From Vibrio vulnificus CMCP6 (GTDB taxonomy: Bacteria > Pseudomonadota > Gammaproteobacteria > Enterobacterales > Vibrionaceae), in the NCBI RefSeq assembly GCF_000039765.1, contig NC_004459.3, positions 2,451,127 to 2,483,126 on the forward strand: a stretch of DNA of 32,000 bases, in the 5' to 3' direction. The notes under the pieces were generated by a model, which made no database searches, was not told the origin of the DNA, and worked only from the letters and a program-made list of their open reading frames with translations. Both the position numbers and the translations under genes were made by a program. Within the stretch, counting starts at the first letter, position 1. Each line of letters begins with the position of its first letter. Below are positions 11,891-32,000 of this stretch, piece by piece.

Positions 11891-12235
11891 TTAATCACGT
11901 AAAATCAGTGGTTTATGGTTTTTCTTTGTTCCCTCGGCTGGTTGATTTCGAGTTTGTCGGCAAGTTAGCTTCATTGGGCGCTGTTTTCTGGACATTTATT
12001 CTTTGGCGCTGAAAATTCAGAGCGTTGCCTCAGTCAATTTTCGGGTAAGCGCGAGGTTAGGGAAGTTGGCTCAATCAGCAATTTTATCTTAGGTTTTTGA
12101 GTTTTAGCGGCCGAATTTCAAAGCCCAGATTTCCAAAACTATGAGTCATTTCGGTTTTCTATGTTTTGGCTTTTGTTTGTAAATCAAAGTCGAGTTAATC
12201 TTGTTTCTAGTAAAACGTAACCCATTGAAGCTTAA
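11891..12235 (+). mobile_element. gene-less cassette body, family A copy 2
   Basis: aligns with the other A copies; no conserved ORF. Confidence 0.8.
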
Positions 12236-17251: not shown

Positions 17252-17253
17252 GC

Positions 17254-17381
17254 TTATAACAAGCAATTTAAGAGGGATTCACAACGCTTGGCATTTTGGG
17301 TTCTACTTCAAATTTAGTGTTTATGGCACAATGCTTTAGGTTGGGTGGTAGCGTTGTTCACCCCTTAATTGGGCGTTATGT
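17254..17381 (+). repeat. attC site 28 (subtype IV, 128 bp)
   Basis: R'' TTATAAC / R' GTTATGT. Confidence 0.9.
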
Positions 17382-17392
17382 TTACAAGGAGT

Positions 17393-18052
17393 ATGATGAA
17401 AAAGGACAAATTTGCTCGAAAGCTTACAAAACTAGATGATCGTGCATATATACGGAGATGTATGTGGCCTGATTTAGATGTAAGGATAGAAAAAGAGTTT
17501 AAGACCTTTCAGAAAGAGTCTCTAGCTGCTTTTGGTGACGTGTACCTGACTCAATTGAAACAACGAAAAAAATACAGAAATTCAAACTTATTAAGTAGTC
17601 AGTTCCATAATGCAACATACGTAAAATTCGGTAGTAGAAGTCTAGGTATAGCTAAAATTCCAAATGAAAATAAGGAACCTTTGGCGATATGTAGTGAACG
17701 AAATGCGCAACTTTATTACACTCAAGGCTCAATTGGAGATGTTTTAGTAGTGCTTTCTCCGTACACCTCAGAGATCTACAATGTTCACGAAAAGAATATT
17801 GTCATTGCTAGATATAAACAACCTGTAGACATATCGCCTAGGTTGATTAATAAGCATCTAAAGGTTTTCAAAAAATATGCTTTGGCCTCGAGTCATGCCT
17901 CTGCTGGGTTATTATCGCCATACCTGTTTAGGCGTTGGCTACAGTTAAAAGATTTCAGGTACAAAGACAACAATAGAGCAGAACTGATACGTGTTATTGA
18001 AAGGGTTATTTTGGTCTCGCTTGCTGCAATTAGTGCTTGGTTGGCAAAATAA
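17393..18052 (+). CDS. hypothetical protein with C-terminal hydrophobic anchor, ~219 aa (ATG 17393 or 17396)
   Basis: SD aaggag (17386-17391); C-terminus VILVSLAAISAWLAK; track start 17369 lies in attC. Confidence 0.7.
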   Translation: MMKKDKFARKLTKLDDRAYIRRCMWPDLDVRIEKEFKTFQKESLAAFGDVYLTQLKQRKKYRNSNLLSSQFHNATYVKFGSRSLGIAKIPNENKEPLAICSERNAQLYYTQGSIGDVLVVLSPYTSEIYNVHEKNIVIARYKQPVDISPRLINKHLKVFKKYALASSHASAGLLSPYLFRRWLQLKDFRYKDNNRAELIRVIERVILVSLAAISAWLAK

Positions 18053-18180
18053 ACATAACAAGCAATTTAAGAGGGATTCACAACGCTTGGCATTTTTGCT
18101 TCTACATCAAATTTAGTGTTTATGGCACAATCTTTTAGGTTGGGTGGTAGCGTTGTTCACCCCTTAATTGGGCGTTAGAA
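18053..18180 (+). repeat. attC site 29 (subtype IV, 128 bp)
   Basis: R'' ACATAAC / R' GTTAGAA. Confidence 0.9.
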
Positions 18181-18197
18181 ATTACAAGGAATGTATC

Positions 18198-18677
18198 TTG
18201 CGTAAAAATAAGATTTTTTGGGGCTTATCAGCCCTATGTCTGAGTATGCCCATTGCAGCGAGTAGCGCAGACAAATTGCTGTTAGAAGCGAACTCAAAGT
18301 TAGCATTATCGTATTCACCTTATCGCCTTGCTGAAGTTGAAACTACCGATTCAAAGTCGGTATTTGGTCAAATAATGGCAGGAACTCCTGGGCAAACAAT
18401 TGCTGTAGTAGACAAACTTGTACTGAAAGATGTACTTGATAGTTTCCATCAAATGTGTGGCTATCAGCCAAGTCAAGTGACTGCCATAAATGTAGTCTCA
18501 CATAGCTACCCAGAGTTTTATGAAGTGTGGGAGTTTGATGACAACGACTCACATATGGACAACGGAAAGTCAGCTCTATCATTGGTTTTAAAAGCTTTAC
18601 CCAATAATGGTGGAACAGATATAGACATTTATGGGGATTGCCATCCCAAACCACTGAGTTTCACGAACCTAAAGTAA
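18198..18677 (+). CDS. secreted hypothetical protein, ~159 aa (TTG start)
   Basis: TTG 7 nt after SD aagga (18186-18190); then a signal-like RKNKIFWGLSALCLSMPIAASSA; start choice is uncertain. Confidence 0.6.
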   Translation: MRKNKIFWGLSALCLSMPIAASSADKLLLEANSKLALSYSPYRLAEVETTDSKSVFGQIMAGTPGQTIAVVDKLVLKDVLDSFHQMCGYQPSQVTAINVVSHSYPEFYEVWEFDDNDSHMDNGKSALSLVLKALPNNGGTDIDIYGDCHPKPLSFTNLK

Positions 18678-18678
18678 T

Positions 18679-18805
18679 TTCTAACAAAGCATTTAAGAGG
18701 GATTCACAACGCTTGGCATTTTTGGTTTGAATCGGCTTTAGTGTTTACAGCACAATGGTTTAGGTTAGGTGGTGGCGTTGTTCACCCCTTAATGCGGCGT
18801 TATTC
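18679..18805 (+). repeat. attC site 30 (subtype IV, 127 bp)
   Basis: R'' TTCTAAC / R' GTTATTC. Confidence 0.9.
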
Positions 18806-18829
18806 AGCTTAAGAAACTTCGAGGAAATA

Positions 18830-19627
18830 ATGGAAGAAAAGTACAAAATCCACTCATTTTATATTCTAACAATTCTTTTAACGATAATTGTACTGTTAGT
18901 TACCGTAGAGTGGTCGACAATAGAAGGATTGAAAGATTACATATCTTTTGCACTTACTGTGTTTTCACTAGGTTTAGCTATTATAGCTATCATTTATTCT
19001 ATGTATTCAAACTCATCTCTTACGTCGAGTTTAACGTTGCTGGAGACTTCAAGTAGTAAACTATCTTTGACATCAGAAAGTCTTTCTTCGTCTACTAATC
19101 AATTATCGGAAACTGTTCGAGGTATCCCAAAGGCCATTGAAAAAGTAGAATCCAGAGTTTCTGAAACTCATGATTTAGTTAAAAATTTGGAGTTAAGTGC
19201 TCCACCTTCAAATATTGTCGGGAATGTATCTGACGAGCTATCCGAGGGGTTTATAAATGACTTTATTAGTAGGTTATCTTACAACGGATTACTAACATTG
19301 TTTACTATCAACTTTTTCTATCGTCACAAAATGATATTTGAATTTGACGGAGAATTAGTAGAAGCGATGGAAATGGACAAAGATTATGCATTTGCTTCGT
19401 TTATAGCGATGAAAGCTATGGGGCTATTTAAAGTTAAAGATAAAGGAAGTGCTTATTTGGTAGTCGATTTTCATCCATATACCGACTCAATGATTGTCAA
19501 AGGGTTGAATGAAAAAATAGGCGAGTTGTTTTCTGATGAAGAAGACTTACTAAACGAAGTGAAAGAGGATTTCAATCGCTTTCAAGCTTATTTAAACTCA
19601 AAAATGGAAGCAGAAATCGCAGAATAA
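18830..19627 (+). CDS. 2-TM membrane-anchored hypothetical protein, 265 aa
   Basis: SD gagga; two N-terminal TM helices, a Ser/Leu-rich helical linker, and a C-terminal globular part of unknown family. Confidence 0.75.
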   Translation: MEEKYKIHSFYILTILLTIIVLLVTVEWSTIEGLKDYISFALTVFSLGLAIIAIIYSMYSNSSLTSSLTLLETSSSKLSLTSESLSSSTNQLSETVRGIPKAIEKVESRVSETHDLVKNLELSAPPSNIVGNVSDELSEGFINDFISRLSYNGLLTLFTINFFYRHKMIFEFDGELVEAMEMDKDYAFASFIAMKAMGLFKVKDKGSAYLVVDFHPYTDSMIVKGLNEKIGELFSDEEDLLNEVKEDFNRFQAYLNSKMEAEIAE

Positions 19628-19718
19628 CAAAGCATTTAAGAGTGATTCGCAACGCTTGGCGGTTTCGCTTCGCTCAAGTATAGCCAAGCGTCGCTCACAC
19701 CTTAATGCGGCGTTAGTT
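19622..19718 (+). repeat. attC site 31 (short subtype S, 97 bp)
   Basis: R'' GAATAAC / R' GTTAGTT. Confidence 0.9.
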
Positions 19719-20072
19719 GCCAACGAGGAAAACGCAGCTTAAACAGAATGTTTAGAGTTAAAGTCAGTGTGTTTTTGGTGGGGTTTCGTACTTCAATTTT
19801 AAATCGTTCGGGTTTGTGAAAATCGTTCTCAGGTTTCTTTTGTGGTTGGATTCGTTTCAGAAACCGAATCACTAGTTGAGAGTCAGCTCTGTGACATTGT
19901 CTTTTCAAATGAGCGTTTTGGTGTTGTCAGTTCGTTTTCTACGGCGTTGCGTGTTCCAAGTGGTTTCAGTGACAGGCGCTTTGAAACTGCGCCTGAACTG
20001 AGTTTTTCAAAGCACGTAAAGCAAGTGTTGGCAAAGTGGTAATTAACTTCAAGTCAAAGCTTTAGGTTTGGC
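19719..20072 (+). mobile_element. gene-less cassette body, family C copy 2
   Basis: aligns with C1 and C3; ORF 19842..20042 judged non-coding. Confidence 0.8.
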
Positions 20073-20199
20073 AACTAACAAAGCATTCAAGAGGGATTCA
20101 CAACGCTTGGCAGTTTTGGTTTGAATCAGCTTTAGTGTTTACGGCACAATAGCTTAGGTTGGGTGGTGGCGTTGTTCACCCCTTAATGCGGCGTTATAT
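20073..20199 (+). repeat. attC site 32 (subtype IV, 127 bp)
   Basis: R'' AACTAAC / R' GTTATAT. Confidence 0.9.
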
Positions 20200-20352
20200 G
20201 CAGTGCAGCTCTGAAACATAGACATTAAGCTAAATTTATGATTTATGTGACCTCAGTTGCTTATTGTCATTCTTATTATCACTAAACTTGTCGAGTCTGT
20301 TCAAAGCAGAACATTGGCTTGCGAAATACAACGGAGATAATAAGGAAATATA

Positions 20353-20493
20353 ATGAGAGTCTTAATTTTATTGTTGGCTACATTGTTTGTGAGTAATTCT
20401 GTCCTAGCTCATGGCGGAGGGTGTCGTAAGAGTTCACCACCTGGTCAATGTTGCCACAAAGACAATAGTACAGGCACAGTACATTGCCACTAG
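20353..20493 (+). CDS. small secreted Cys/His-rich peptide, 46 aa (absent from the ORF track)
   Basis: SD aagga (20342-20346); MRVLILLLATLFVSNSVLA then HGGGCRKSSPPGQCCHKDNSTGTVHCH (4 Cys, 4 His in 27 aa); only plausible ORF in this cassette. Confidence 0.6.
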   Translation: MRVLILLLATLFVSNSVLAHGGGCRKSSPPGQCCHKDNSTGTVHCH

Positions 20494-20505
20494 TCTGAAC
20501 CTTGC

Positions 20506-20632
20506 ATATAACAAGGCATTTAAGAGGGATTCAAAACGCGTGGCATTTGCGGTTTGAATCCATTTTTGTGTGTACTTTGTTCAATTTTAAATTGGGGGTA
20601 AGCGTTTTTCACCCCTTAATGCGGCGTTAGCT
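20506..20632 (+). repeat. attC site 33 (divergent subtype IV, 127 bp)
   Basis: R'' ATATAAC / R' GTTAGCT. Confidence 0.85.
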
Positions 20633-20672
20633 AACCAACGTAAGAATAATAATATGTAGTAAGGAAATATAG

Positions 20673-21548
20673 ATGGCAGGTAATTTTCGAGTTCATGCAT
20701 TTGGTATTGTTGGACTAAACGACAAAACTGATGACTTAGAGGACGTTTTAAACGATATACTCGCTGATGATATCGAGGACCGTGTTAGAACAATTGGTCA
20801 ACACGAGATTCGAGTAGAACATATTGAGAAGGTTGACGGTGTATGGCATCTAGACTTTGTGAAATTTCGTGATGTTCATGGACCTGGTAAAGGTTCGAGA
20901 AAGACAAAGGTTTTAGGCTTTGACTTTAAGGCGGGTGAAGTTTTTTGTGAGGAAACTGCATTAATGTACTGCCCTAAGCGCAGTTACATTTTACTTCAGT
21001 ATAACCATCATGGGGTTCGGTATTCTGCTATAGAGGATTACTTCAGTGTTTATAGTGGGAACCCTGATAATCAATATGAGCTTCAAGCCAAGTACGATGA
21101 TGATGTGGATCGCAAGTTTACATCTAGGAAAGCGACTAAGTCGCTAACCTTGGCAATCGATCCTAGGCTGTTAAGCGATAAGGATCGAGACTCAAAGACA
21201 GCATTAGGCAGTGCAATTGAGTTGGGTGACAAGTCAAATGCGTCGAAGATTGAAATTACTATCACAGCAGGCAGAGAGAAGAAGCGTTTTCTTTCAAAGT
21301 TTATCGACGATACTGCGACAAAAATGAAAAAACTTGCAGAGAAAAATCCTGATGCAGTAGGTAAATTGCGTGCAGGAGTTGTTAGCTCGGGCGTCGATGA
21401 AAAACTGCAAGTTTTAGACTTAATTGAAGAGCGTTTGTGCCGAAACTTTACTGATATCCCTGTAGGCAACGATAAACGTTGGCCCAGAGATGCGAGATAT
21501 AAAGCTCTCGAAAGGGCACGACGCGGTTGGAAAAAAATAATGGGTTAA
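20673..21548 (+). CDS. hypothetical soluble protein, 291 aa (gene 1 of a two-gene cassette)
   Basis: SD aagga (20661-20665); no TM segments; motif Y-x-P-x8-Y-N-H (residues 99-112); family not recognised. Confidence 0.8.
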   Translation: MAGNFRVHAFGIVGLNDKTDDLEDVLNDILADDIEDRVRTIGQHEIRVEHIEKVDGVWHLDFVKFRDVHGPGKGSRKTKVLGFDFKAGEVFCEETALMYCPKRSYILLQYNHHGVRYSAIEDYFSVYSGNPDNQYELQAKYDDDVDRKFTSRKATKSLTLAIDPRLLSDKDRDSKTALGSAIELGDKSNASKIEITITAGREKKRFLSKFIDDTATKMKKLAEKNPDAVGKLRAGVVSSGVDEKLQVLDLIEERLCRNFTDIPVGNDKRWPRDARYKALERARRGWKKIMG

Positions 21549-21553
21549 TTTTT

Positions 21554-21976
21554 ATGCACTTATATGTTGAAAAATCATATCCATATGTTTTGGCTTCAGG
21601 TGCCAGCTTTGCGTGGTTCTATTTCAAAATGTCGTTTCCAGTAGGGAACGACATTTTGTCAGCATCTCTAACAATTGGAGCCATACTTACTGGCTTTTTA
21701 GCTACAGCAAAAACATTGCTTATGACTTTAGATACGCCTGTAATGAATAGGATCCGAAGTACAGCTTATGCTCAAGATTTAGCCTCTTACCTTGGTGAAG
21801 CTATTTGGCTATGCTTTGGCTTTTGTGTCTTAGCAATGGTTGGCTACTTTTGTAGTACTAGTAAACTTTGGTACGGGGTTGTTTGGATTTTTATTTCAAT
21901 TGCAGCGTCATTTGCTTTCATTAGGGTGACGACGATCATGCTCAAAATCATTAAGCACCAACCAAGCAAAAGTTAG
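21554..21976 (+). CDS. small 4-TM membrane protein, ~140 aa (gene 2; alternative TTG start at 21527 overlapping gene 1)
   Basis: ATG 6 nt after the upstream stop; four hydrophobic helices by eye; basic C-terminal tail. Confidence 0.75.
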   Translation: MHLYVEKSYPYVLASGASFAWFYFKMSFPVGNDILSASLTIGAILTGFLATAKTLLMTLDTPVMNRIRSTAYAQDLASYLGEAIWLCFGFCVLAMVGYFCSTSKLWYGVVWIFISIAASFAFIRVTTIMLKIIKHQPSKS

Positions 21977-22100
21977 CTAACAAACAATTCAAGAGTGATT
22001 CAGCACGCTTGGCATTTTTGGTTTGGGTTCGGTTCAGTGTTTACGGTGTTCAAATGAAATGTCGTGGCAGCGTGCTTCACACCTTAATTGGGCGTTAGCT
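21975..22100 (+). repeat. attC site 34 (divergent subtype IV, 126 bp)
   Basis: R'' AGCTAAC / R' GTTAGCT. Confidence 0.85.
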
Positions 22101-22190
22101 TACTCGCAAGCAGTAATACTATAAGCAGACTCAGAGTATTAGCATTTTGTTATTATTTCATCATTTCTATGAGTGATATCGGTATTAATA

Positions 22191-22538
22191 ATGTCTAACT
22201 TCAATGTTGTGTTGGTGACCAGTTTTCTGTTCAATTTTGCGTTAGACATGATGGAAACTGAGAGTTTTAGGCTTGTAGCAGTAATGGTTTCCTTCTTTGT
22301 GTCGCTGTCGTTTATCCTAGATCAACAAACTTGGTTTCTATCGACGGCAGAGAAGTTTGCTGATTGGTCAAAGGCGTTTTTCATTGCCTATGTAACTTGT
22401 GAAATTACGCTGGTCATAAACTTGGTTTATGTCGTAGTTAACAAGTACAGTGTGAGTTCAATGGCTTGGTATACGCCAAGTTTATTGCTAGGCGCATTTT
22501 CTCTCTACAGGATGAGAAAAAACGCAACGTCTCAGTAA
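22191..22538 (+). CDS. small multi-TM membrane protein, ~115 aa (alternative GTG start at 22173)
   Basis: hydrophobic throughout; weak SD, so the start is uncertain. Confidence 0.6.
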   Translation: MSNFNVVLVTSFLFNFALDMMETESFRLVAVMVSFFVSLSFILDQQTWFLSTAEKFADWSKAFFIAYVTCEITLVINLVYVVVNKYSVSSMAWYTPSLLLGAFSLYRMRKNATSQ

Positions 22539-22664
22539 GCTAACAAAGCGTTAAAGAGGGATTCATGCCGCGTGGCATTTTTGGTATGCGGTGAGTTTTG
22601 GTGGTGATGGTGGTCTGCGGAAAGCTGGTTTGGGCGGCACTCACCCCTTAACGCAGCGTTATGT
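22538..22664 (+). repeat. attC site 35 (subtype III, 127 bp)
   Basis: R'' AGCTAAC / R' GTTATGT. Confidence 0.9.
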
Positions 22665-22684
22665 AACAAGGAGAGTTTGGCTAA

Positions 22685-23191
22685 ATGGAAGTAATATCTG
22701 AAAGGCTACGGATGAAGCCATTATCGGGAAATGACTTGTCTTTATTTCTACAACTCCATACAAACCCAAGTGTCATTTCGCTCTGTTTCGATGAACTGCC
22801 AAAGTTAGAAATTGAGAGTAAATTTAAATCTCGATTAGCACCTTGGTTTGTAGATTCGGAGCATTGGTTATGTTTAGTTGTTGTCGAGTCCACAACGAAT
22901 AAAGCAGTAGGTATAACAGGTTTTTGTGTTAACGATTCTGTTGCTGAAGTTGGGTTTATGTTTTTACCCGAATATCATGGGCTCGGGTATGGTACAGAGT
23001 CACTGCAAGCCCTCATAAATTATTCAATGTCAGAGTTCGGCATCGATAAATACAGTGCAGTTGTCACCGAGGGCAACATTGGTTCCGAAAAGGTACTTAC
23101 AAAAGTGGGTTTTGTGCTCGATAGGATAGTGCCTCAAGCTTATGAAATTGGTGGTCATTTGTACGCAGACCATGTCTACAAATATGCGTAA
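22685..23191 (+). CDS. GNAT family N-acetyltransferase (RimJ/RimL-like), 168 aa
   Basis: SD aaggaga; ERLRMKPLSGNDL.. N-terminus and HGLGYGTES motif. Confidence 0.8.
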   Translation: MEVISERLRMKPLSGNDLSLFLQLHTNPSVISLCFDELPKLEIESKFKSRLAPWFVDSEHWLCLVVVESTTNKAVGITGFCVNDSVAEVGFMFLPEYHGLGYGTESLQALINYSMSEFGIDKYSAVVTEGNIGSEKVLTKVGFVLDRIVPQAYEIGGHLYADHVYKYA

Positions 23192-23198
23192 AATTGTT

Positions 23199-23325
23199 AC
23201 ATAACAAGGCGTTCAAGAGGGATTCATGCCGCGTGGCATTTTTGGTTTGCAGTGAGTTTTAGTGGTGAAAGTGGTCTGCGGAAGGTTGGCTTAGGCGGCA
23301 TTCACCCCTTAACGCAGCGTTATGC
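23199..23325 (+). repeat. attC site 36 (subtype III, 127 bp)
   Basis: R'' ACATAAC / R' GTTATGC. Confidence 0.9.
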
Positions 23326-23676
23326 TTAATTACGTAAAATCAGTGGTTTATGGTTTTTCTTTGTTCCCTCAGCTTTTTAGTTTTGTGCTCGTCGGCAAGT
23401 TGGCTTTTTTGAGCGCTGTTTTTCGGACACTTATTCTTTGGCGCTAAAAACTCTGAGAATTGCCTCAATCAATTCTCGGGCAAGCGCGAGGTTAGGGCGG
23501 TTGGCTCAATCAGAAATCCATTTCTAGGTTTTCAAACTTCAAACCAGATTTGCCAAAATTCCGAGCCTGATTATCAAAACTATGATTCATTTCGGTTTTC
23601 TGTGTTTTGGCTTTTGTGTGTAAATCAAAGTCGAGTTAATCTTGGTTCTATTAAAACGTAACCCATTGAAGTTTAA
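23326..23676 (+). mobile_element. gene-less cassette body, family A copy 3 (paired with a subtype III attC rather than II)
   Basis: aligns with the other A copies. Confidence 0.8.
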
Positions 23677-23803
23677 GCATAACAAGGCGTTCAAGAGGGA
23701 TTCATGCCGCGTGGCATTTTTGGTATGCGGTGAGTTTTGGTGGTGAAGGTGGTCTGCGGAAAGTTGGTTTAGGCGGCACTCACCCCTTAACGCAGCGTTA
23801 GCC
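23677..23803 (+). repeat. attC site 37 (subtype III, 127 bp)
   Basis: R'' GCATAAC / R' GTTAGCC. Confidence 0.9.
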
Positions 23804-23813
23804 GTCATGGAGC

Positions 23814-23842
23814 TTGCTATACTCAAAGTGATAGAATAGTAT
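23814..23842 (+). promoter_or_regulatory. candidate sigma70 promoter of the toxin-antitoxin cassette
   Basis: TTGCTA (23814-23819), 17-nt spacer, TAGTAT (23837-23842); about 30 nt upstream of the antitoxin ATG. Confidence 0.5.
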
Positions 23843-23847
23843 CACTT
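23826..23847 (+). promoter_or_regulatory. candidate antitoxin operator (perfect 8-bp inverted repeat)
   Basis: aagtgata-gaatag-tatcactt, overlapping the -10 region. Confidence 0.5.
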
Positions 23848-23871
23848 TAGTATTTCTTTGGAGCAGCTCTC

Positions 23872-24129
23872 ATGAAAGTAGAACTAGTTACATCACTCAA
23901 ACGCCAAGCAACAAAGATCCTTGCCGATCTCCACGACACTAAAGAACCAGTGTTAATTACCGAACATGGTAAGCCATCGGCATATCTGGTTGATGTTGAT
24001 GATTACGAGTTTATGCAAAATCGTTTAGCGATTCTTGAGGGGATTGCACGAGGTGAACGTGCATTAGCTGACGGTAAAGTGGTGAGTCACGATGAAGCCA
24101 AGGACAAAATGTCAAAATGGCTGAAATAA
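23872..24129 (+). CDS. Phd/YefM-family type II antitoxin, 85 aa
   Basis: ..KEPVLITEHGKPSAYLVDVDDYEFM.. is typical of Phd/YefM; overlaps the downstream toxin gene. Confidence 0.85.
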   Translation: MKVELVTSLKRQATKILADLHDTKEPVLITEHGKPSAYLVDVDDYEFMQNRLAILEGIARGERALADGKVVSHDEAKDKMSKWLK

Positions 24130-24419
24130 TCTGGACTGAGCCAGCGCTATCCGACCTCAATGATATCGCTGAATACATCGCACTTGAAAATATCGTAGCT
24201 GCAAAACAATTGGTTCAAGCGATCTTTTCTAAAGTCGAGCGCTTAGAGGCTTTCCCTGAATCGGGTCGCATTCCGCCTGAACTAGAACATCTAAGTTATC
24301 GTGAAGTTGTAGTTAATCCGTGCCGTATTTTCTATAAACAAGACGGCGACAAAGTATTTATTTTGTTTGTTATGCGTGCTGAGAGAGACTTGCGTAAGTT
24401 CCTATTGAGCAAGCAATAA
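24117..24419 (+). CDS. RelE/ParE-family type II toxin, 100 aa
   Basis: ..IIWTEPALSDLNDIAEYIA..FPESGR.. is the ParE/RelE pattern; 13-nt overlap with the antitoxin gene. Confidence 0.85.
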   Translation: MAEIIWTEPALSDLNDIAEYIALENIVAAKQLVQAIFSKVERLEAFPESGRIPPELEHLSYREVVVNPCRIFYKQDGDKVFILFVMRAERDLRKFLLSKQ

Positions 24420-24434
24420 CCTTTGGGAATGAAC

Positions 24435-24562
24435 GGCTAACAAACTGTTTAAGAGTGATTCGCAACGCGTGGCATTTTTACTATGCGTTAGGTTTAGTGT
24501 TTAAGGTGTGACATGCGGTGGCTTCGGTATTGCGTTGCTCACACCTTAACAGGGCGTTATGC
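24435..24562 (+). repeat. attC site 38 (subtype I, 128 bp; identical to attC 1 up to the G of R')
   Basis: R'' GGCTAAC / R' GTTATGC. Confidence 0.9.
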
Positions 24563-24906
24563 TTAATCACGTAAAATCAGAGGTTTATGGTTTTTCTTTA
24601 TTCCCTCGGCTGATTGGTTTTGTGCTTGTCGGCAAGTTGGCTTCTGTGAGCGCTGTTTTTCGGACACTTATTCTTTGGCGCTGGAAATTCAGAGAGTTGC
24701 CTCAATCAGTTTTCGCGTAAGCTCGAGGTTAGGGCAGTTGGCTCAATCAGCAATTTGATAGTAGGTTTTTGAGTTTTATCTGCCAAATTTCAAAGTCTCA
24801 TTTTCAAAGATTATGAGTCATTTCAGTTTTTAGGTTTTGCCTTTTGTTAGCTAATCCTAGTCGAGTTAATCTTAGTTTTGGTAAAAATGTGGGCGTTGAA
24901 GCTTAA
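24563..24906 (+). mobile_element. gene-less cassette body, family A copy 4
   Basis: aligns with the other A copies. Confidence 0.8.
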
Positions 24907-25033
24907 GCATAACAAAGCGTTCAAGTGGGATTTGGCACGCGTGGCATTTTTAGTTTGCGTTGAGTTCGGTGATTACGGCACTGTGCGGTAGCTTTTGTAT
25001 TGCGTGCCTGCACCCCTTAACGCGGCGTTATGT
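24907..25033 (+). repeat. attC site 39 (subtype II, 127 bp)
   Basis: R'' GCATAAC / R' GTTATGT. Confidence 0.9.
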
Positions 25034-25052
25034 GCTTTTGAGGAAAATTGAC

Positions 25053-25547
25053 ATGGAAGTAGTAGAAGCGAGTCCAGATTTAGCTCCGATATTAGTGAGG
25101 TACGCGAAAGAATGTTTGGAGTCGGGTATCCTTAAATATTCCAGCGTTGAGCAAGATCCTGAAGCTTATTTATTAGGTTTGGTTGAACGCTCTAAGGCAA
25201 CTTCTGAGTTACCAAGCGGGTATTTACCCAGCACAACTTATTATTGCGTATCTGACTCTGAAATCTTAGGCGCTATTCGAGTTCGTAAAGGTACTAACGC
25301 CAACGTAGAAAATGTCATTGGGCATGTTGGCTACGAAACTAAACCGTCAGCTCGTGGTAAAGGTGTAGCTTCATTTCTCCTCGTTTGGGTGCGAGACCAT
25401 GTTGTCACTGACTCAGTTATTGTTACTTGTTCAATTGACAATCCAGCGTCCCAAAAGGTTATCGAAAACTGTGGCGGTGAGTATCTTGGCAACTACACAA
25501 GCGAAAACGAGGGCACTGTAAGGCGCTACCGTTTAGCACGCACATAA
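25053..25547 (+). CDS. GNAT family N-acetyltransferase, 164 aa
   Basis: ATG after SD gagga; motif IGHVGYETKPSARGKGVASFLL; track start 24960 lies in attC. Confidence 0.8.
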   Translation: MEVVEASPDLAPILVRYAKECLESGILKYSSVEQDPEAYLLGLVERSKATSELPSGYLPSTTYYCVSDSEILGAIRVRKGTNANVENVIGHVGYETKPSARGKGVASFLLVWVRDHVVTDSVIVTCSIDNPASQKVIENCGGEYLGNYTSENEGTVRRYRLART

Positions 25548-25670
25548 CAAAGCGTTCAAGAGGGATTCTCAACGCTTGGCAGTGTTGGTTCAAAGTTTGG
25601 CTTTTGTGATTATGGCACAATGGTTTAGGTCAGGCGGTGGCGTTGTTCACCCCTTAACGCGGCGTTATGT
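25542..25670 (+). repeat. attC site 40 (subtype IV, 129 bp)
   Basis: R'' ACATAAC / R' GTTATGT. Confidence 0.9.
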
Positions 25671-25683
25671 TCTAGGAGGTAAA

Positions 25684-26427
25684 TTGAACATTAATTGGGA
25701 AAAAATTGAGAAAGTATTCAGGTTATTCTTCCCTGAGTTCTCAAACAAAGTAACTTGGGCTGTAGTCATTGCCGGTATCGGCCTGACATCGACTTCATTA
25801 GTGCAAAGTATTATCAATGCGTTCTTGGAAACTCAATTTAATATTAGAATTTTAGGTCCATACGATTCCCTTATCGGCGTTGTCCTAATTGCCTTTGGGT
25901 TGATTCACAACATATTGCTACAAAGAGAAAAAACTAAAATTGAGGTGAATGGCAAGATTGAAGTTAATAAACAAGCCATTGAGCATGACAAGGCTTTATT
26001 CGAGCACCTCGATAATATACTGGACGACGAATACTTAATGCGCTTCTTTGAGGGTGTAGAAGTAAATCATGCCTATTTTTATAGTAAAGTTAAGCCGCTC
26101 ACGGACTTTATGTATGAAATTGGAAAGGTTAAAACTGAATTCGTACTGGAACCCATAGCATCATCTCTCAATCAATTAAAGCCAGTAACACGTCAACTGG
26201 ACGAGTTTTTTGTCTGTAACTTTGATGCTTATGGTCCAGGGAGAGGTGATGATTTTTGGTTATGTTTACATCCTCAATGGAACTGTGACAGAGCTGGAAG
26301 TTGGGATGACTTCGAGGGATCTAAAAAATATGATGTCGCTATGAGGGAGCTATTTCAGATCATTGATAACTATAAAGAATTGTATAAAGTTTATCGGCTT
26401 AATGTGAAAAAAGAGTTATGCATTTAG
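25684..26427 (+). CDS. 2-TM membrane-anchored hypothetical protein, ~247 aa (TTG start)
   Basis: TTG 4 nt after SD aggagg (25674-25679); N-terminal module FPEFSNKVTWAVVIAGIGL.. resembles the N-terminus of the 27068 protein. Confidence 0.65.
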   Translation: MNINWEKIEKVFRLFFPEFSNKVTWAVVIAGIGLTSTSLVQSIINAFLETQFNIRILGPYDSLIGVVLIAFGLIHNILLQREKTKIEVNGKIEVNKQAIEHDKALFEHLDNILDDEYLMRFFEGVEVNHAYFYSKVKPLTDFMYEIGKVKTEFVLEPIASSLNQLKPVTRQLDEFFVCNFDAYGPGRGDDFWLCLHPQWNCDRAGSWDDFEGSKKYDVAMRELFQIIDNYKELYKVYRLNVKKELCI

Positions 26428-26432
26428 TCCGA

Positions 26433-26560
26433 ACATAACAAAGCATTTAAGAGTGATTCCCAACGCATGGCATTTTTCATTCCATCGTTGGGTTTTGTGT
26501 TTACGGTGGCTTGGTTGAGCTTTGTGGTAGCGTTGCTCACACCTTAACGCGGCGTTAAAC
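26433..26560 (+). repeat. attC site 41 (subtype IV, 128 bp)
   Basis: R'' ACATAAC / R' GTTAAAC. Confidence 0.9.
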
Positions 26561-26580
26561 GACATATGGAGGCTAATCAG

Positions 26581-26912
26581 GTGAAATTGAGTTTGATAGC
26601 TTTGCTGTTATGTTTTAGTTCATTTTGTTTTGGAGGCAATTTGGGGAAAGGGAAAGAAGACACCCAACACTTATTTGACTCGGTGCTGCCTTTCTTAAAG
26701 CAGCTGCAAATCGACAATATAGCACCACCGCGGTAGTTTACGATGTTCGTATTATGCTTCCTTCAGGTAAGGCTTCAGATGCAATAGCCGTTAATCTTGA
26801 TCATAATTCTGGCTATTCTATTGTCGTGTATTTGCCTTACAAAAAAGTAAACCAAGCTATAGAGTACGGTGAACTATCAGTTCAAGAAGGTCGTGGAGCA
26901 ATATTTAATTAA
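26581..26912 (+). pseudogene. frameshifted gene for a small secreted/lipo-protein (~110 aa if restored)
   Basis: GTG after SD ggagg gives MKLSLIALLLCFSSFCFGG.. (51 codons, TAG at 26734). The reading continues in another frame from 26733 (VVYDVRIMLPSGK..GAIFN*) to 26912. Confidence 0.55.
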
Positions 26913-26927
26913 GCGCGTGATATGTGC

Positions 26928-27053
26928 GTTTAACAAACTGTTCAAGAGGGATTCGCAACGCGTGGCATTTTTACTATGCGTTGAATTTAGTGGTTAAGGT
27001 GGTATGCGGCGGCTTCGGTATTGCGTTGCTCACCCCTTAACAGGGCGTTAGTT
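26928..27053 (+). repeat. attC site 42 (subtype I, 126 bp)
   Basis: R'' GTTTAAC / R' GTTAGTT. Confidence 0.9.
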
Positions 27054-27067
27054 TTATCAGGAGACAT

Positions 27068-28036
27068 ATGAGTACGACATTGACTTTAAAAAGTATTGCA
27101 TTAGAAAAATTAAACAGAATACTAAACCCAAATTTTGAAACTAAGTTCATATGGGCGCTACTTGTCGCAGGGTTATCTTTACTGGGGTATCAAAGAGTAG
27201 TTCAATTGGGCTCCAGTATTGAGGTTCTTTCACCTGAGTGGTACGTAAAGTTATCCTTGAGTTCGGGAGCGGACACGTTTTTTGTATTTCTAGGCTTTAT
27301 TTTTGTATTGATTTCTTGTGGACTATTTTATTTAAAATACTATCACCGTGACCTCGATAAGGTAGTAACTTACAAAAGTTTGAGAAAAGCTGCTTCTGCT
27401 ATCAGGCCGTTGTTAGATGAAAATAGACGCATTTTTATGACATTTGGCCCAAACTCAGGCTCAGGCAGTACTGGCGACTTACGTCATGATATGTCGCTGT
27501 GGGAAGAGTTAAAGAAAACCCAAATAGTTCCGAATAACGATAAAATCCGTAATATCTTAGATTCTGTATCTGAGTTTAGTCAAAGCGAACAAGTTACAGT
27601 GTCTGACATTAAGTCTCATATTGAAGCATTTAAGAAACACTGTGAAGATCCGGAATTTGACTATTCAAATAACCAGTTTCCCCAATCATTTGCCGATTTA
27701 ATTTTTTCTTATTGTGCAAAAAAACATAACAACGTAGACAAATACTCTTACTGGTTACGCAATGAAACTCTCGCTGAGAAAGCTAGAATTGAAAATATCC
27801 TGATTTTTGGAAGTGCGTTGTACGGAGAGGAAAAAATAGATGTCGATATTGTTATAAAAACTAATGATTCTTCAATAGAGCAAGTAAGGTCATTTTCAGC
27901 TTATATAACTGAGCTTAAAAATCGTTTTAAGGGCAAGTTTGGTTTAACTCTTCACGCTACAGTTTTTTCTGAACTGGAAGTGAAGTCTTATGAAGAGTTT
28001 ATGCTAAAAATTCATTCAACCAAGAAGGTACTTTAG
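27068..28036 (+). CDS. 2-TM membrane protein with C-terminal minimal nucleotidyltransferase (Pol-beta-like) domain, 322 aa
   Basis: SD aggaga; two TM helices (residues ~27-40 and ~70-88); NTase signature FGSALYGEEKIDVDIVI (G248-S249..D258-x-D260, nt 27809-27847). Confidence 0.7.
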   Translation: MSTTLTLKSIALEKLNRILNPNFETKFIWALLVAGLSLLGYQRVVQLGSSIEVLSPEWYVKLSLSSGADTFFVFLGFIFVLISCGLFYLKYYHRDLDKVVTYKSLRKAASAIRPLLDENRRIFMTFGPNSGSGSTGDLRHDMSLWEELKKTQIVPNNDKIRNILDSVSEFSQSEQVTVSDIKSHIEAFKKHCEDPEFDYSNNQFPQSFADLIFSYCAKKHNNVDKYSYWLRNETLAEKARIENILIFGSALYGEEKIDVDIVIKTNDSSIEQVRSFSAYITELKNRFKGKFGLTLHATVFSELEVKSYEEFMLKIHSTKKVL

Positions 28037-28037
28037 T

Positions 28038-28424
28038 ATGGGGCGAAATCTTCACTATACAATTCCCCGCTTTCTACAAAAGGCACTTGACGAACATACG
28101 AAAGTGCGAGATTGGCAGAGAATCGATCATCCTCAGAACGACAACGATTTTATCTATCGTATCCGACGTACTGATGGACTCTCAGATATAGTTCTACATG
28201 CGGCAGACGACTATAGGTATTTGCTTACGAACTATTTTCAGAAGCCAGATAAAGTTGGGCAAGGTGCTTTTATTCTTATCGCAAGACCTGAAGGTGGCTA
28301 TGCAGATGAGGTGGTCGACATAGCGAAGCAAGATGAAATTAGTATAGGTAAGTTTAGTGCCCTGATGGGAGCCTTATATCGAGAAGACCACTGGAATTAT
28401 GTTCCCAAAGAACGTAGAGAATAA
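28038..28424 (+). CDS. hypothetical protein, 128 aa (gene 2, coupled to the NTase gene)
   Basis: ATG 1 nt after the upstream TAG; mixed alpha/beta-looking sequence; no family recognised. Confidence 0.7.
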   Translation: MGRNLHYTIPRFLQKALDEHTKVRDWQRIDHPQNDNDFIYRIRRTDGLSDIVLHAADDYRYLLTNYFQKPDKVGQGAFILIARPEGGYADEVVDIAKQDEISIGKFSALMGALYREDHWNYVPKERRE

Positions 28425-28550
28425 AACTAACAAACTGTTTAAGAGTGATTCGCAACGCGTGGCAGTTTTGCTATGCGTTGCGTTTAGTGTTTAAGGTGCT
28501 ATGCGGAAGCATCGGTATTGCGTTGCTCACACCTTAACAGGGCGTTAGCT
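28425..28550 (+). repeat. attC site 43 (subtype I, 126 bp)
   Basis: R'' AACTAAC / R' GTTAGCT. Confidence 0.9.
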
Positions 28551-28573
28551 TAAATCATTAACAAGGATGTGTA

Positions 28574-28915
28574 ATGAGAAACAAAAAATGGGTCTTTGCG
28601 GCGATTTTGCTCATTGGTGGCCCTTCACTATTGCCCTTTAGTTTGGAAGTGATTTCTGCAATCGAGTTATTTGGCCTTTTGGGTTTATGGACAATTTACT
28701 CATCCTATGCGGAATATTTGGTGAATCATCCTAGATTCAAAAGAGGTGTTTGCTTAGCGACTAGTTGGGACTTTCAGCCTCAGATGCTGTTCTCTCCAAG
28801 TGAGCTTAAGGCATGTCCCCAGCTAATTTTTCATATGCTTCCAGTTCAAAGCGCTATGGTTTGGACTCTGAATATTCTGTTTTGGGGCGGTGTGGCTTGG
28901 TGCTACATAATTTAA
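28574..28915 (+). CDS. small membrane protein, 113 aa
   Basis: SD aagga; about three hydrophobic helices. Confidence 0.7.
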   Translation: MRNKKWVFAAILLIGGPSLLPFSLEVISAIELFGLLGLWTIYSSYAEYLVNHPRFKRGVCLATSWDFQPQMLFSPSELKACPQLIFHMLPVQSAMVWTLNILFWGGVAWCYII

Positions 28916-29041
28916 GCTAACAAGGCGTTCAAGAGGGATTCATGCCGCGTGGCATTTTTGGCATGCGGTGAGTTTTGGTAGTAAAAGTGGTCTGCGGAAA
29001 GCTGGTTTAGGCGGCATTCACCCCTTAACGCAGCGTTATAT
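28915..29041 (+). repeat. attC site 44 (subtype III, 127 bp)
   Basis: R'' AGCTAAC / R' GTTATAT. Confidence 0.9.
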
Positions 29042-29476
29042 TTATCCACGTATTTCCATAATCCATTTGATGCTTATGTATGTGTGTAGTTATAATCAGA
29101 ACACGCAACTTGGGCAAGGCTCTTTTTGCTAGAAGTGCATTCGCATCTTAGATGGTCAGGCGACTGTTGATGATAGTTATGTTGAATGGTTGCACACTTT
29201 GCTGCTTTCACTGCAACTGAGAGCAAATAATCGTTGGTAAGGATTGCAAAACCTTATTCAGCGCGTGACGGCCACTCACGTAAAATATCAGGATTAACTC
29301 TTGAGTCGGCTCGAGAATTATCAGGCGAACTTTATGTTTACTGTTAAAACTCGAAATATAGTGGTTTCAATTGATGTTGCTGCAATAATTAGGGCTTCGG
29401 CTTTATTGTTGGTGCTTTTTTTGTAACCTTTGGTTGGGGCATCTTTGCCCCAAACCATAAATCTCCACCAATATAA
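29042..29476 (+). mobile_element. gene-less cassette body (E, unique)
   Basis: no ORF >=60 codons that stays outside attC; contains hairpins and a 30-codon hydrophobic ORF (29334-29426). Confidence 0.65.
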
Positions 29477-29603
29477 ATATAACAAAGCGTTTAAGACGGA
29501 TTCCCAACGCTTGGCATTCTCAGTTTGTTTCAACTTTAGTGTTTACGGCTCAATGCCTTAAGTTTGGTGGCCGCGTTGCTCACCACTTAACGCGGCGTTA
29601 TGC
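29477..29603 (+). repeat. attC site 45 (subtype IV, 127 bp)
   Basis: R'' ATATAAC / R' GTTATGC. Confidence 0.9.
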
Positions 29604-29948
29604 TTAATCGCGCAAAATCAGTGGTTTATGGTTTTTCTTTGTTCCCTCGGCTGATTAGCTTCGAGCTAGTCGGCAAGTTGACTTAATTGGGCGCTGCTTT
29701 TCGGACTCTTATTCTTTGGCGCTGAAAATTCAGAGAATTGCCTCAATCAATTTTCAGGTAAGCGCGAGGTTAGGGTGGCTGGCTCAATCAGCAATTTGAT
29801 CTTAGGTTTTTGATTTTTAGCAACCAAATTTCAAAGTCTGATTTTCAAAAATTATGAGTTATTTCAGTTTTTTAGGTTTTACCTTTTGTTAGCTAATCCT
29901 AGCCGAGTTAATCTTGGTTTTGGTAAAAATGTGGGCGTTGAAGCTTAA
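29604..29948 (+). mobile_element. gene-less cassette body, family A copy 5
   Basis: aligns with the other A copies. Confidence 0.8.
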
Positions 29949-30075
29949 GCATAACAAAGCGTTTAAGTGGGATTTGGCACGCGTGGCATTTTCAGTTTGC
30001 GTTGAGTTCGGTGGTTACGGCACTGTGCGGTAGCTTTTGTATTGCGTGCCTGCACCCCTTAACGCGGCGTTATAT
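29949..30075 (+). repeat. attC site 46 (subtype II, 127 bp)
   Basis: R'' GCATAAC / R' GTTATAT. Confidence 0.9.
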
Positions 30076-30107
30076 GCTAATTATGTCCACTAAACTAAAG
30101 GTGCTTT

Positions 30108-30443
30108 ATGGAACTAGATAAATTTGTAACAAAGACATTATTGATGATATCGAAGGGTGTTTATGATGCTCAAAATAGTAGTCCCGAATATGGCGTTAAA
30201 GTAAACGAGCTTCCAATTACCAGCTTTTCTCGCAATGATCCATTGTCTCAAAATGGAACTTTCATGCAGAATGTTACTTTCGACGTCGCAATTACTACTG
30301 AAGAGGTATCTGAAGGAGATGCGAAAATATCAGTTTTGGGTCTTTCTTTGGGTAAAAATGGCAGTTTCACAGATGTGTACTCATCGCGGATAAAATTTAC
30401 AATCCCTCTATCTTTTCCCAGATCAAGTCTAGATAAACAATAG
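30108..30443 (+). CDS. hypothetical protein, 111 aa, possibly trypco2-like
   Basis: N-terminal helix, then NVTFDVAITTEEVSEGDAKISVLGLSLGKNGS..SSRIKFTIPL; this resembles my recollection of trypco2 (trypsin-co-occurring domain 2) proteins. Confidence 0.6.
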   Translation: MELDKFVTKTLLMISKGVYDAQNSSPEYGVKVNELPITSFSRNDPLSQNGTFMQNVTFDVAITTEEVSEGDAKISVLGLSLGKNGSFTDVYSSRIKFTIPLSFPRSSLDKQ

Positions 30444-30449
30444 GCACGC

Positions 30450-30576
30450 ATATAACAAGGCGTTCAAGTGGGATTCATGCCGCGTGGCATTTTTGGTATG
30501 CGGTGAGTTTTGGCGGTGAAAGTGGTCTGCTGGAAGTTGGTTTGAGCGGCACTCACCCCTTAACGCGGCGTTAGTT
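30450..30576 (+). repeat. attC site 47 (subtype III, 127 bp)
   Basis: R'' ATATAAC / R' GTTAGTT. Confidence 0.9.
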
Positions 30577-30935
30577 GCCAACGAGGAAAAACGTACCTAA
30601 AGCGGAATGTTAAGGGCTAATGTTCGTGTGTTTGGCTAGGTTTTCGTATTTCAATTTCTAACTATTTGGGTTTGTGAAAATCGAGTTTTGGTTTCTTGTG
30701 TGATTGGATTTTCTGTTTCGTAAGCTTATTTGGGTGTTGAAAGTCAGCTCGGTTAAATTATATCTGTCCAAAAGAGCTTTTTGGTGTTGTTAGCCCGTTT
30801 TCTACGGCGTTGTATGTTCCAAGTGGTTTCAGTGACAGGCGCTTTGAAACTACGCCTGATTCGAGTGTTCCAAAACACGTAAAGCTAGTGTTGGCAAAGC
30901 GGTAATAAACTCCAGATCCTAGCCTTGAGCTTGGC
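30577..30935 (+). mobile_element. gene-less cassette body, family C copy 3
   Basis: aligns with C1 and C2. Confidence 0.8.
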
Positions 30936-31062
30936 AACTAACAAAGCATTCAAGAGGGATTCACAACGCTTGGCAATTTTGGTTTGAATTGGCTTTAGTG
31001 TTTACGGCACAATGGTTTAGGTTAGGTGGTAGCGTTGTTCACCCCTTAATGCGGCGTTATGT
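30936..31062 (+). repeat. attC site 48 (subtype IV, 127 bp)
   Basis: R'' AACTAAC / R' GTTATGT. Confidence 0.9.
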
Positions 31063-31078
31063 AGCAAGGAGATACGGT

Positions 31079-31486
31079 GTGCTTAACTTTTTGAATAAAA
31101 AGTCTTATGTTCAGTCAGTTGCTAAAGATGTAGCTCCTAAACTGTGTGCTAAGTTTGGGAAAAAGCTCGTCTATTCGTTTCAGGAAATTAGTTGGGCATT
31201 GAGTGAGATTAAGCGTAGTGATGACCAGTTCTATAGGTCAGTTTCTTATGGCATGTTGTTGCCTTACAGTAAAGAGTTGACTATCGAGTTACAAGAAGAC
31301 TTGGGTGACTTGTTAGAGTTTCAAAAGTCTGTCGGAGAGATCTTATTTAACGTGTCGGAAGTTCCATCGTTTGAAAGCTACCTGTTATATGCAGAGGTAA
31401 ATTCAGCACCTAAATGTAGTGTTACGAACACGACTCTAGATAGTTCCGGTGGAGTAAACTTTCTTGATTTTGGTGGCGCTGACTAG
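31079..31486 (+). CDS. hypothetical protein, ~135 aa (GTG start)
   Basis: GTG 7 nt after SD aaggag (31066-31071); track start 30989 lies in attC. Confidence 0.65.
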   Translation: MLNFLNKKSYVQSVAKDVAPKLCAKFGKKLVYSFQEISWALSEIKRSDDQFYRSVSYGMLLPYSKELTIELQEDLGDLLEFQKSVGEILFNVSEVPSFESYLLYAEVNSAPKCSVTNTTLDSSGGVNFLDFGGAD

Positions 31487-31488
31487 CT

Positions 31489-31615
31489 ACATAACAAGGC
31501 GTTTAAGAGGGATTCATGCCGCGTGGCATTTTTGGCATGCGGTGAGTTTTGGCGGTGAAAGTGGTCTGCGGAAAGCTGGTTTAGGCGGCATTCACCCCTT
31601 AACGCAGCGTTAGGC
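31489..31615 (+). repeat. attC site 49 (subtype III, 127 bp)
   Basis: R'' ACATAAC / R' GTTAGGC. Confidence 0.9.
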
Positions 31616-31637
31616 GCTATTCACTTTAGGATTAGGG

Positions 31638-32000
31638 ATGAACGTAGAATTTAGAGTGATCAATTTGGCGCAAGATTATGATTTTTGCGTAGCTGCTCGA
31701 AAGGATGCTTACTATTGCAGTTTCGAGACCTTTTCGGGTTTTGATGATTTCATAGCAGGTTATCGAGAACGAATCCAAGAAAGGCAATCTGAAGCAGGTT
31801 GGTTTTACATCCATATCTGGTTGGATGGAAAATTGGTAGGGCAGTTAGAGTTTCGTTCCTTTTCACCCGAGCCAGAGACCGGTTATGTTCATTTGGTTTA
31901 CTTGTTGCCTGAAGTTCGCGGTTCTGGTTTGAGCCAGCAAGTTCAGGTCTACATCGAAACAGAATTAGCACGAGCTGGTTGTGATCGTGCTGTGCTTTCC
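31638..32000 (+). CDS. GNAT family N-acetyltransferase, 5' part (runs off the window; absent from the ORF track)
   Basis: ATG 6 nt after agga; open for 121 codons to the window end; ..GYVHLVYLLPEVRGSGLSQQV.. is GNAT motif A. Confidence 0.7.
   Translation, partial: MNVEFRVINLAQDYDFCVAARKDAYYCSFETFSGFDDFIAGYRERIQERQSEAGWFYIHIWLDGKLVGQLEFRSFSPEPETGYVHLVYLLPEVRGSGLSQQVQVYIETELARAGCDRAVLS

Follow-up and report, generated by a model that had tools for sequence, protein, structure and literature searches.

A minimal nucleotidyltransferase and its coupled partner in a Vibrio vulnificus integron cassette: a putative conflict module with exchangeable front ends

Minimal nucleotidyltransferases (MNTs) are known mainly as antitoxins of HEPN RNases. 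In the MntA-HepT systems, HI0073/HI0074 included, a minimal nucleotidyltransferase (NTase) with a GS...DxD motif is encoded upstream of, and coupled to, a partner of about 130 residues. The locus that we describe here has the same layout. It lies in a 32,000-nucleotide stretch of the Vibrio vulnificus CMCP6 genome (hereafter the window) and consists of gene A (27068-28036, plus strand), which encodes a 322-residue protein made up of a membrane hairpin, a helical domain that we call M and a minimal NTase, and gene B (28038-28424, plus strand), which encodes a 128-residue protein that we call partner P. We consider the chances about even that this pair is a self-contained, horizontally mobile conflict module, acting in abortive-infection phage defence or in the manner of a toxin–antitoxin (TA) system.

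The likeness to MntA-HepT extends to the NTase, which models best on MntA and HI0073, and to an invariant tyrosine in the partner that, judged from the alignment, is a candidate for nucleotidylation as in HepT. The differences lie in the remaining parts. P is an alpha/beta protein with restriction-endonuclease-like structural matches, whereas HepT is an all-helical HEPN protein with an Rx4-6H motif; gene A adds the conserved M domain and a swappable effector; and the third catalytic residue of the NTase is usually a histidine. Because the partner has neither the fold nor the motif of a HEPN protein, the pair is not an MNT-HEPN system.

Nor is it a SLATT/SMODS, CBASS, AbiE or bSEFIR system. SLATT/SMODS systems resemble this locus in combining a module of two transmembrane (TM) helices with an NTase in a putative conflict setting, but here the two are parts of a single protein and sequence comparison lends the kinship no support. 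An earlier reading of the window from sequence alone (hereafter the original prediction) had invoked SLATT/SMODS-type logic. This did not hold up: the only match was to SLATT_6 at E=0.048 (13.3 bits against a cut-off of 100) over residues 150-209, outside the TM region. Membership of the SLATT/SMODS/CD-NTase families was rejected for want of a meaningful profile match in Pfam, PADLOC or NCBIfam. AbiE/MenAT (DUF1814, type IV TA) is likewise a two-gene conflict module with an NTase of the Pol-beta superfamily, but there the NTase, a larger toxin with four motifs, follows the antitoxin gene, and both gene order and partner differ; neither gene product matched AbiEii/DUF1814 in Pfam or PADLOC. In PADLOC-DB 2.0 the NTase core of gene A weakly matches the candidate families PDC-S09 and PDC-M05A (E at least 2.9e-4), P has no match, and neither protein has a significant match to a system model. 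The original prediction had not recognized the combination, and indeed no TA or defence family named in Pfam, NCBIfam, PADLOC or PHROGs accommodates the pair.

Domains of gene A and partner P

Both genes are confirmed as real, conserved and translationally coupled. Gene A starts at an ATG (27068) preceded at 5 nt by an AGGAG ribosome-binding site and ends with a TAG stop codon (28034-28036). It has about 50 clusters of full-length homologues of conserved length, and among named homologues the nearest (99% identical) carries the annotation Vibrio vulnificus. The ATG of gene B (28038) lies one base past that stop and its open reading frame (ORF) ends at 28424; the coupled arrangement of 322- and 128-residue products had been read in this way in the original prediction, and all of it stands in the sequence. 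P has 69 close homologue clusters, and a profile search against 1.84 billion representatives gave 127 clusters at the 50% identity level, nearly all of them 120–140 residues long.

An alignment of 27 homologues and an AlphaFold model (pLDDT 79) divide the gene A protein into three parts with established boundaries: an N-terminal module (residues 1-100, 27068-27367), the M domain (residues 104-232, 27377-27763) and a minimal, MNT-type Pol-beta NTase (residues 236-322, 27773-28033), all read on the plus strand.

The NTase carries the MNT motif, hG[GS]-x(8-13)-D-h-[DE]-h, as F-G248-S249-x8-D258-V-D260-I. The stretch FGSALYGEEKIDVDIVI, encoded at 27809-27847, holds the G-S-x8-D-x-D signature exactly as the original prediction gave it. 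The catalytic residues are conserved, GS in 49 and DxD in all 50 of 50 relatives. The predicted alpha/beta fold can be superposed on solved MNTs in local Foldseek matches: MntA (6m6u/7bxo) is matched with a probability of 0.99, a target TM-score of about 0.5 and a root mean squared deviation (RMSD) of 3.9 Å over about 100 columns, and HI0073 (1no5) with a probability of 0.97, alongside the adenylyltransferases AadA and AAD(9). Profiles of two minimal NTases in the PDB, 9xbd_E and 2rff, are also matched. The compact Pol-beta-type C-terminus that had been proposed thus models as an NTase fold, and Pfam Polbeta (PF18765) agrees at E=1.7e-4, with a score (22.1 bits) below the gathering threshold of 26.9. 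NTP_transf_2 (PF01909) scores 13.9 bits, below its cut-off of 21, which the NTases of some relatives pass (22.7 bits in locus L036 and 27.5 in L052).

At the position of the third catalytic carboxylate the Vibrio protein has His296 (27953-27955). Histidine occupies this position in 43 of the 50 relatives, aspartate in two and asparagine in three; aspartate was also seen by eye there in two NTases of the distant branch, L012 and P0242. This histidine is an unusual, family-specific variant of the active site. From its conserved motif the NTase looks active; the histidine in place of the third carboxylate means that activity is not guaranteed. The domain is therefore a divergent member of the MNT group, typical in motif and fold and atypical in its third carboxylate and in its Pfam score.

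Within the protein, conservation is lowest in the N-terminal module. An amphipathic helix (residues 7-18) is followed by two hydrophobic helices (about 26-46 and about 67-90) with a short hairpin between them. The second of these is strongly hydrophobic, with Kyte-Doolittle scores of up to 2.3; the first, with a 19-residue maximum of about 1.3, is borderline for a TM helix. AlphaFold models a helical hairpin (residues 23-49 and 66-94), and in many relatives both hydrophobic segments exceed the TM threshold. Hydropathy and model together thus bear out the two N-terminal TM helices of the original prediction as a membrane hairpin, with a marginal first segment. Matches of the full-length model to ZnT/YiiP transporters were dismissed as global helical noise (RMSD 22–27 Å).

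A similar N-terminus occurs in the cassette immediately upstream (25684-26427, plus strand), which encodes a protein of about 247 residues that starts at a TTG preceded by an AGGAGG site; a look-up of its exact sequence, read from that TTG, gave no match. The amphipathic helix and two hydrophobic helices of this protein resemble those of the 322-residue protein (BLASTP E=4e-5; family N-terminal hidden Markov model E=3e-5 among the 302 ORFs of the window). The C-terminal region shows no such kinship and is unannotated, and there is no partner gene. One membrane module may have been reused there with a different sensor.

The M domain is all-helical (alignments A2 and A6). The alignment of 27 homologues shows the motifs FGPNS, W145, IxPNN, H184-IxAF, Y199 and QFP, and in a wider alignment N119, W145, N157, H184, F204 and P205 are invariant. 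M is always fused to an effector domain and, in the protein P0206, to a partner domain as well. Neither M nor P matches any model in Pfam, NCBIfam, PADLOC 2.0 or PHROG, and M has no sequence relative in the PDB. Profile matches of M to designer pentatricopeptide repeat (PPR) proteins in the PDB reached E values down to 5e-14. We rejected these as a repeat artefact: no stretch is individually significant, and one weak helical-hairpin match is summed over many identical repeats. M is a new, discrete helical domain and is central to the system. The middle region of about 150 residues that the original prediction called unknown does lack a match to any known family, but it is in fact this discrete, conserved domain.

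P is modelled with higher confidence (pLDDT 88.8), as an alpha/beta protein with five strands and the topology a-b-b-b-a-b-a-b-a. Foldseek found nothing significant, the best matches having E values of 0.006–0.05 and TM-scores of 0.35–0.45. The best weak matches, in the PDB (MspJI, the Rpb5 N-domain, TSEN15/34, MepB and Kpn2I) as in BFVD (an Mrr-domain protein with probability 0.96 and a viral Rpb5 with probability 0.91 and TM-score 0.44), have a restriction-endonuclease-like fold as their common theme. These matches weakly suggest a restriction-endonuclease-like fold for the model. The PD-(D/E)xK catalytic residues are absent: no conserved aspartate starts strand 2, and strand 3 (IVLHAA-DDY) has no ExK.

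Sequence conservation in P picks out other residues. Across 80 diverse relatives, in none of which the P domain itself has a Pfam match, Tyr59 is the sole invariant residue besides the initiator methionine; His20, Val23 and Arg44 are nearly so, and a C-terminal tail W-x-Y-x-P-(K/P)-E-R (W-x-Y-x-P-K-E-R in the Vibrio protein) is widely conserved. Tyr59 and the tyrosine of the WxY tail are candidate nucleotidylation sites. A HEPN partner was ruled out by the alpha/beta model, which is not all-helical, by the lack of a conserved Rx4-6H and by the lack of any HEPN model match in Pfam, PADLOC or NCBIfam; R24-x6-H31 is a chance occurrence in which H31 is not conserved. The original prediction had already noted a downstream partner without a HEPN signature.

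Relatives, module exchange and cassette mobility

A genome scan with alignment A1 returned 35 loci, of which one (L046) is a fragment and was left out, so that 34 could be assessed. The 35 come from Gammaproteobacteria, Betaproteobacteria (Aromatoleum), Campylobacterota, Bacteroidota, Chloroflexota, Gastranaerophilales and Alphaproteobacteria, at least six phyla, and Aeromonas is among the hosts besides V. vulnificus. Co-occurrence of the modules is obligate. In all 34 assessable loci P directly follows a gene that bears the NTase, at a spacing of +1, +2, -1 or -8 nt (a gap of 1 nt in Vibrio) or, in locus L043, with a 62-nt overlap; a distant branch has the reverse order, with P before the NTase. 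Identity to the Vibrio proteins, taken domain by domain, runs P >= M > NTase > N-terminal module, an order consistent with a variable effector attached to a regulatory core that is conserved. The neighbours vary from locus to locus and include no conserved third gene, and a search of plasmids and phages with the partner found no copy on either.

The domain in front of M differs between lineages. Most copies have a membrane hairpin there, as TM prediction in the relatives indicates. Chloroflexota have a SMEK_N restriction-endonuclease domain (Pfam 4.6e-33; PADLOC Aga_REase 1.2e-28); three alphaproteobacterial genomes have a SEFIR/TIR domain (Pfam SEFIR and TIR_2 above gathering; PADLOC bSEFIR 5.8e-33); a distant metagenomic branch has an HNH_2 nuclease (27 bits, cut-off 21); and the single protein P0206 has the helix-turn-helix (HTH) domain HTH_31 (E=0.0011, below the Pfam cut-off). 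In short Argonaute systems, SMEK is listed as one of the nuclease effectors joined to APAZ (PMC10810196), and SEFIR proteins defend against phage (bioRxiv 10.1101/2022.05.11.491447). This swapping of N-terminal domains strengthens the conflict-system reading of the original prediction.

Short pAgo/APAZ, CBASS, Pycsar and Thoeris systems likewise fuse these same alternative front ends to one conserved non-catalytic domain. Unlike them, the family described here has no Argonaute/APAZ, CD-NTase, cyclase, SAVED or SLOG component, and its core consists of M, an MNT-type NTase and P. A further likeness is to bSEFIR (Millman et al. 2022), whose PADLOC model is the one matched by the N-terminal domain in the three alphaproteobacterial loci (L040, L033 and L047). 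The Vibrio protein, by contrast, has no SEFIR domain and no match to that model, and bSEFIR is one gene as against the three (SEFIR-M, NTase and P) of those loci.

The order and joining of the modules vary within the family. Writing E for the domain in front of M and N for the NTase, the Vibrio arrangement is E-M-N + P; alphaproteobacteria have E-M + N + P, as SEFIR-M + N + P; E-M + P + N also occurs, HNH-M + P + N included; HTH-M-P + N occurs as well; N and P are found fused in both orders; and in one arrangement a tandem-duplicated P is followed by N. These Rosetta-stone fusions and permutations are an argument for joint action of M, N and P in a single complex, with the variable front domain as its output module. 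On sequence evidence, they point to an interchangeable effector under the control of a three-module core (M, N and P).

The split alphaproteobacterial systems, one of them in Bradyrhizobium sp. 139, are each composed of three overlapping genes (L040, 3800-5396; L033, 3818-5414; L047, 3854-5366) that encode SEFIR/TIR-M, a stand-alone NTase of 81–95 residues and the partner. The C-terminus of the L047 partner diverges after about residue 83, and a further ORF of 334 codons overlaps the 3' end of its gene.

In Vibrio, genes A and B form exactly one integron cassette of 1,497 bp (27048-28544, plus strand). The window is part of a Vibrio-type chromosomal superintegron, with at least 27 VCR-like attC repeats of about 120–130 nt in a single orientation; these repeats (TAACAAAC...GGCGTTA) separate short cassettes, all of which are read on the plus strand. 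The attC site upstream of gene A (26931-27051, plus strand; repeat families D2/D3/D10, with 18–27 copies in the window) has the sequence TAACAAAC...GGGCGTTAG with imperfect inverted repeats. It belongs to the preceding cassette, and its GTT core (27047-27049) sets the 5' boundary of the two-gene cassette. The cassette's own VCR-like attC (28428-28548, plus strand; repeat families D1 and D2, with inverted repeats) places the 3' recombination point after G28544. ORFs followed by attC sites, the GTT cores and the orientation of the array together establish the cassette structure; the integrase and attI lie outside the window. This context is one that the original prediction had missed.

The cassette recurs as a unit. 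An identical 1,497-bp cassette is present in another strain (locus L051) between different neighbours, cut exactly at the predicted GTT boundaries. Moreover, the 5' junction GTTAGTTTTCTAGG, of the pattern GTTAGTTTT(C/A)T..AGG, recurs ahead of orthologues in Marinomonas, Halomonas, Marinobacterium, Cellvibrionaceae and an uncultured gammaproteobacterium (L004), and the orthologous pairs that share it are followed by different, host-specific attC sites. The pair in the JGI metagenome contigs L004-L007 (L004, 6001-7374) has a cassette-type 5' junction, GTTAGTTTTCAGG, and follows directly on recC; no integron array is evident nearby, and insertion of the cassette at a secondary site is a possible explanation. 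Only 20 nt separate the 5' recombination point (27047|27048) from the ATG of gene A, and a search of the cassette found no promoter-like site above chance. Like most cassettes, it is therefore promoterless.

Proposed mechanism and competing explanations

We propose that the helical M domain, a catalytically active minimal NTase and a small P of restriction-endonuclease fold would act together as a conserved core, with an interchangeable effector joined to the front of M. In Vibrio this effector would be the two-helix membrane hairpin; since the front-end repertoire of the family is that of abortive-infection systems, we read the hairpin as a putative effector that damages the membrane once released. 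M and the NTase would act like a KNTase/MntA-type enzyme and nucleotidylate P, most likely at Tyr59 or at the tyrosine of the C-terminal WxY; alternatively, they would themselves be regulated by P. The modification state of P, or its binding on M, would determine if the effector is kept silent or instead assembles, with death or arrest of the cell as the outcome.

This proposed switch draws on MNT-HEPN systems, which the locus resembles in NTase type, in gene order and coupling and in the invariant tyrosine of the partner; the MntA-HepT structures matched by the gene A model include one of the AMPylated toxin (7ae9). By that analogy, P would be a substrate or a regulator of the NTase. We infer that the N-terminal module is the effector, and the biological role would be defence or addiction. 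Vibrio chromosomal integrons are reported to be reservoirs of defence cassettes, with about 10–16% of the cassettes tested proving active (PMC12409362), which raises the prior for a defence role here; the species tested in that work (V. cholerae and V. parahaemolyticus) are not among the named homologues of either gene.

Several observations weigh against a conflict module of this kind. The cassette has no promoter of its own, which is unusual for an autonomous TA module. Outside integrons the flanking genes are mostly housekeeping genes and gave no strong defence-island signal, even if some of these neighbours are defence or mobile-element genes, among them those for an Mrr_cat protein, RhuM, a DpnII endonuclease, DNA methylases and an HNH_5-like protein that falls slightly short of the Pfam cut-off. 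The fold assignment of P is based on weak matches, the third carboxylate of the NTase is replaced by histidine in the Vibrio protein as in most relatives, and the first hydrophobic segment of the Vibrio copy is only marginally TM-like. P0206 carries an HTH rather than a killing domain in front of M; the front module may thus not always be an effector.

If the conflict reading is right, the pair would be a new defence or TA-like family with two uncharacterized domains, M and the partner; it would show MNT-type NTases in control of membrane, NADase-like and nuclease modules, and would add to the evidence that chromosomal integrons store compact immune systems. A system of this size (two genes, 1.5 kb) would also be useful as a portable module. 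A more far-reaching version, which we hold only tentatively and give a realistic but lower chance, is that the cassette is the founding example of an undescribed, phylum-spanning immune family, in which an MNT-type NTase and a P of derived restriction-endonuclease fold form a nucleotidylation switch on M that licenses several killing effectors. Were this true, 'type VII' enzymatic control would extend from TA pairs to modular abortive infection spread by integrons.

The nearest competitor is a type VII-like TA pair on the MntA-HepT pattern, in which P is a toxin of derived nuclease fold neutralized by AMPylation by the NTase, the hairpin serves only to localize the antitoxin and the role is to stabilize the cassette array. 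Such a pair would have the gene organization seen here, with the NTase gene first and a translationally coupled partner second as in MNT-HEPN, and an NTase fold closest to that of MntA. Conservation is highest in P, as is usual for a toxin, and two-gene cassettes of Vibrio superintegrons are often TA systems, one of which, a Phd-ParE cassette, lies 2.6 kb upstream. What this explanation leaves unaccounted for are the SEFIR/TIR, SMEK and HNH domains on the NTase-bearing protein of relatives; nor does it sit well with a P that lacks the canonical PD-(D/E)xK residues, with a cassette that has no promoter of its own or with the failure to find plasmid copies. We judge it unlikely. Less likely still is a second-messenger system akin to CBASS, Pycsar or SMODS, in which the NTase would make a signal that M senses, the N-terminal module would be the effector and P would either sense infection or regulate the NTase. 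An effector joined to M, with a separate or fused NTase, mimics in its layout an effector-SAVED/STING protein with its cyclase, the effector repertoire (TM, TIR-like, nucleases) equals that of these systems, and several relatives encode the NTase separately. The NTase is, however, a bare MNT-type core of about 85 residues, and to our knowledge no MNT-type enzyme synthesizes oligonucleotides. Searches of Pfam, PADLOC and NCBIfam gave no CD-NTase, SMODS, SAVED, SLATT or cyclase model match, no relation of M to known nucleotide sensors was detectable, and generator and receiver are usually one polypeptide, which would make a diffusible signal unnecessary.

The same front-end swaps bear on an explanation outside conflict altogether, that of a membrane-bound modifying enzyme, an antibiotic or envelope NTase of ANT/Lnu type with P as its substrate-binding subunit. 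The Foldseek matches to the aminoglycoside adenylyltransferases AadA and AAD(9) speak for it, as do the ANT/Lnu-type enzymes that integron cassettes often carry and the resemblance of M and N to a permuted NTase plus helical domain. Yet the AadA matches do not extend beyond the NTase core that the proteins have in common (TM-score about 0.2), NCBIfam gave no match to a resistance family, and exchanging a membrane module for SEFIR/TIR, SMEK or HNH does not suit a resistance enzyme; we regard this explanation as very improbable. The conflict module with a core of M, NTase and P remains the reading that we prefer.

Other cassettes of the superintegron

The sequence of the window from 17068 to 32000 is identical to GenBank CP037931.1 (assembly GCA_004355205.1), and no known RNA family was found in the window. 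The TA cassette upstream of gene A (23872-24419, plus strand) is of the Phd/YefM-ParE type, with overlapping genes of 85 and 100 codons. Its 3' end and attC are repeated with 99% identity at positions 1-176, which suggests that a second copy lies just upstream of the window. The cassette that follows gene B (28574-28915, plus strand) encodes an unannotated 113-residue protein in which several segments are hydrophobic.

The array continues past the window end. About 7.7–10.5 kb downstream of gene A, further cassettes (L048, 17746-18537 and 19747-20505) encode a HEPN_Cthe2314-domain protein and an Mrr_cat/NA-iREase1 protein, and they fit the presence of other conflict-type cassettes in this superintegron. 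Within the window, five paralogous cassettes of about 340 nt (5816-6115, 11860-12159, 23295-23594, 24532-24831 and 29573-29872) are 70–85% identical to a reference copy. They share no conserved long ORF and have no Rfam match, and could be non-coding or encode small peptides.

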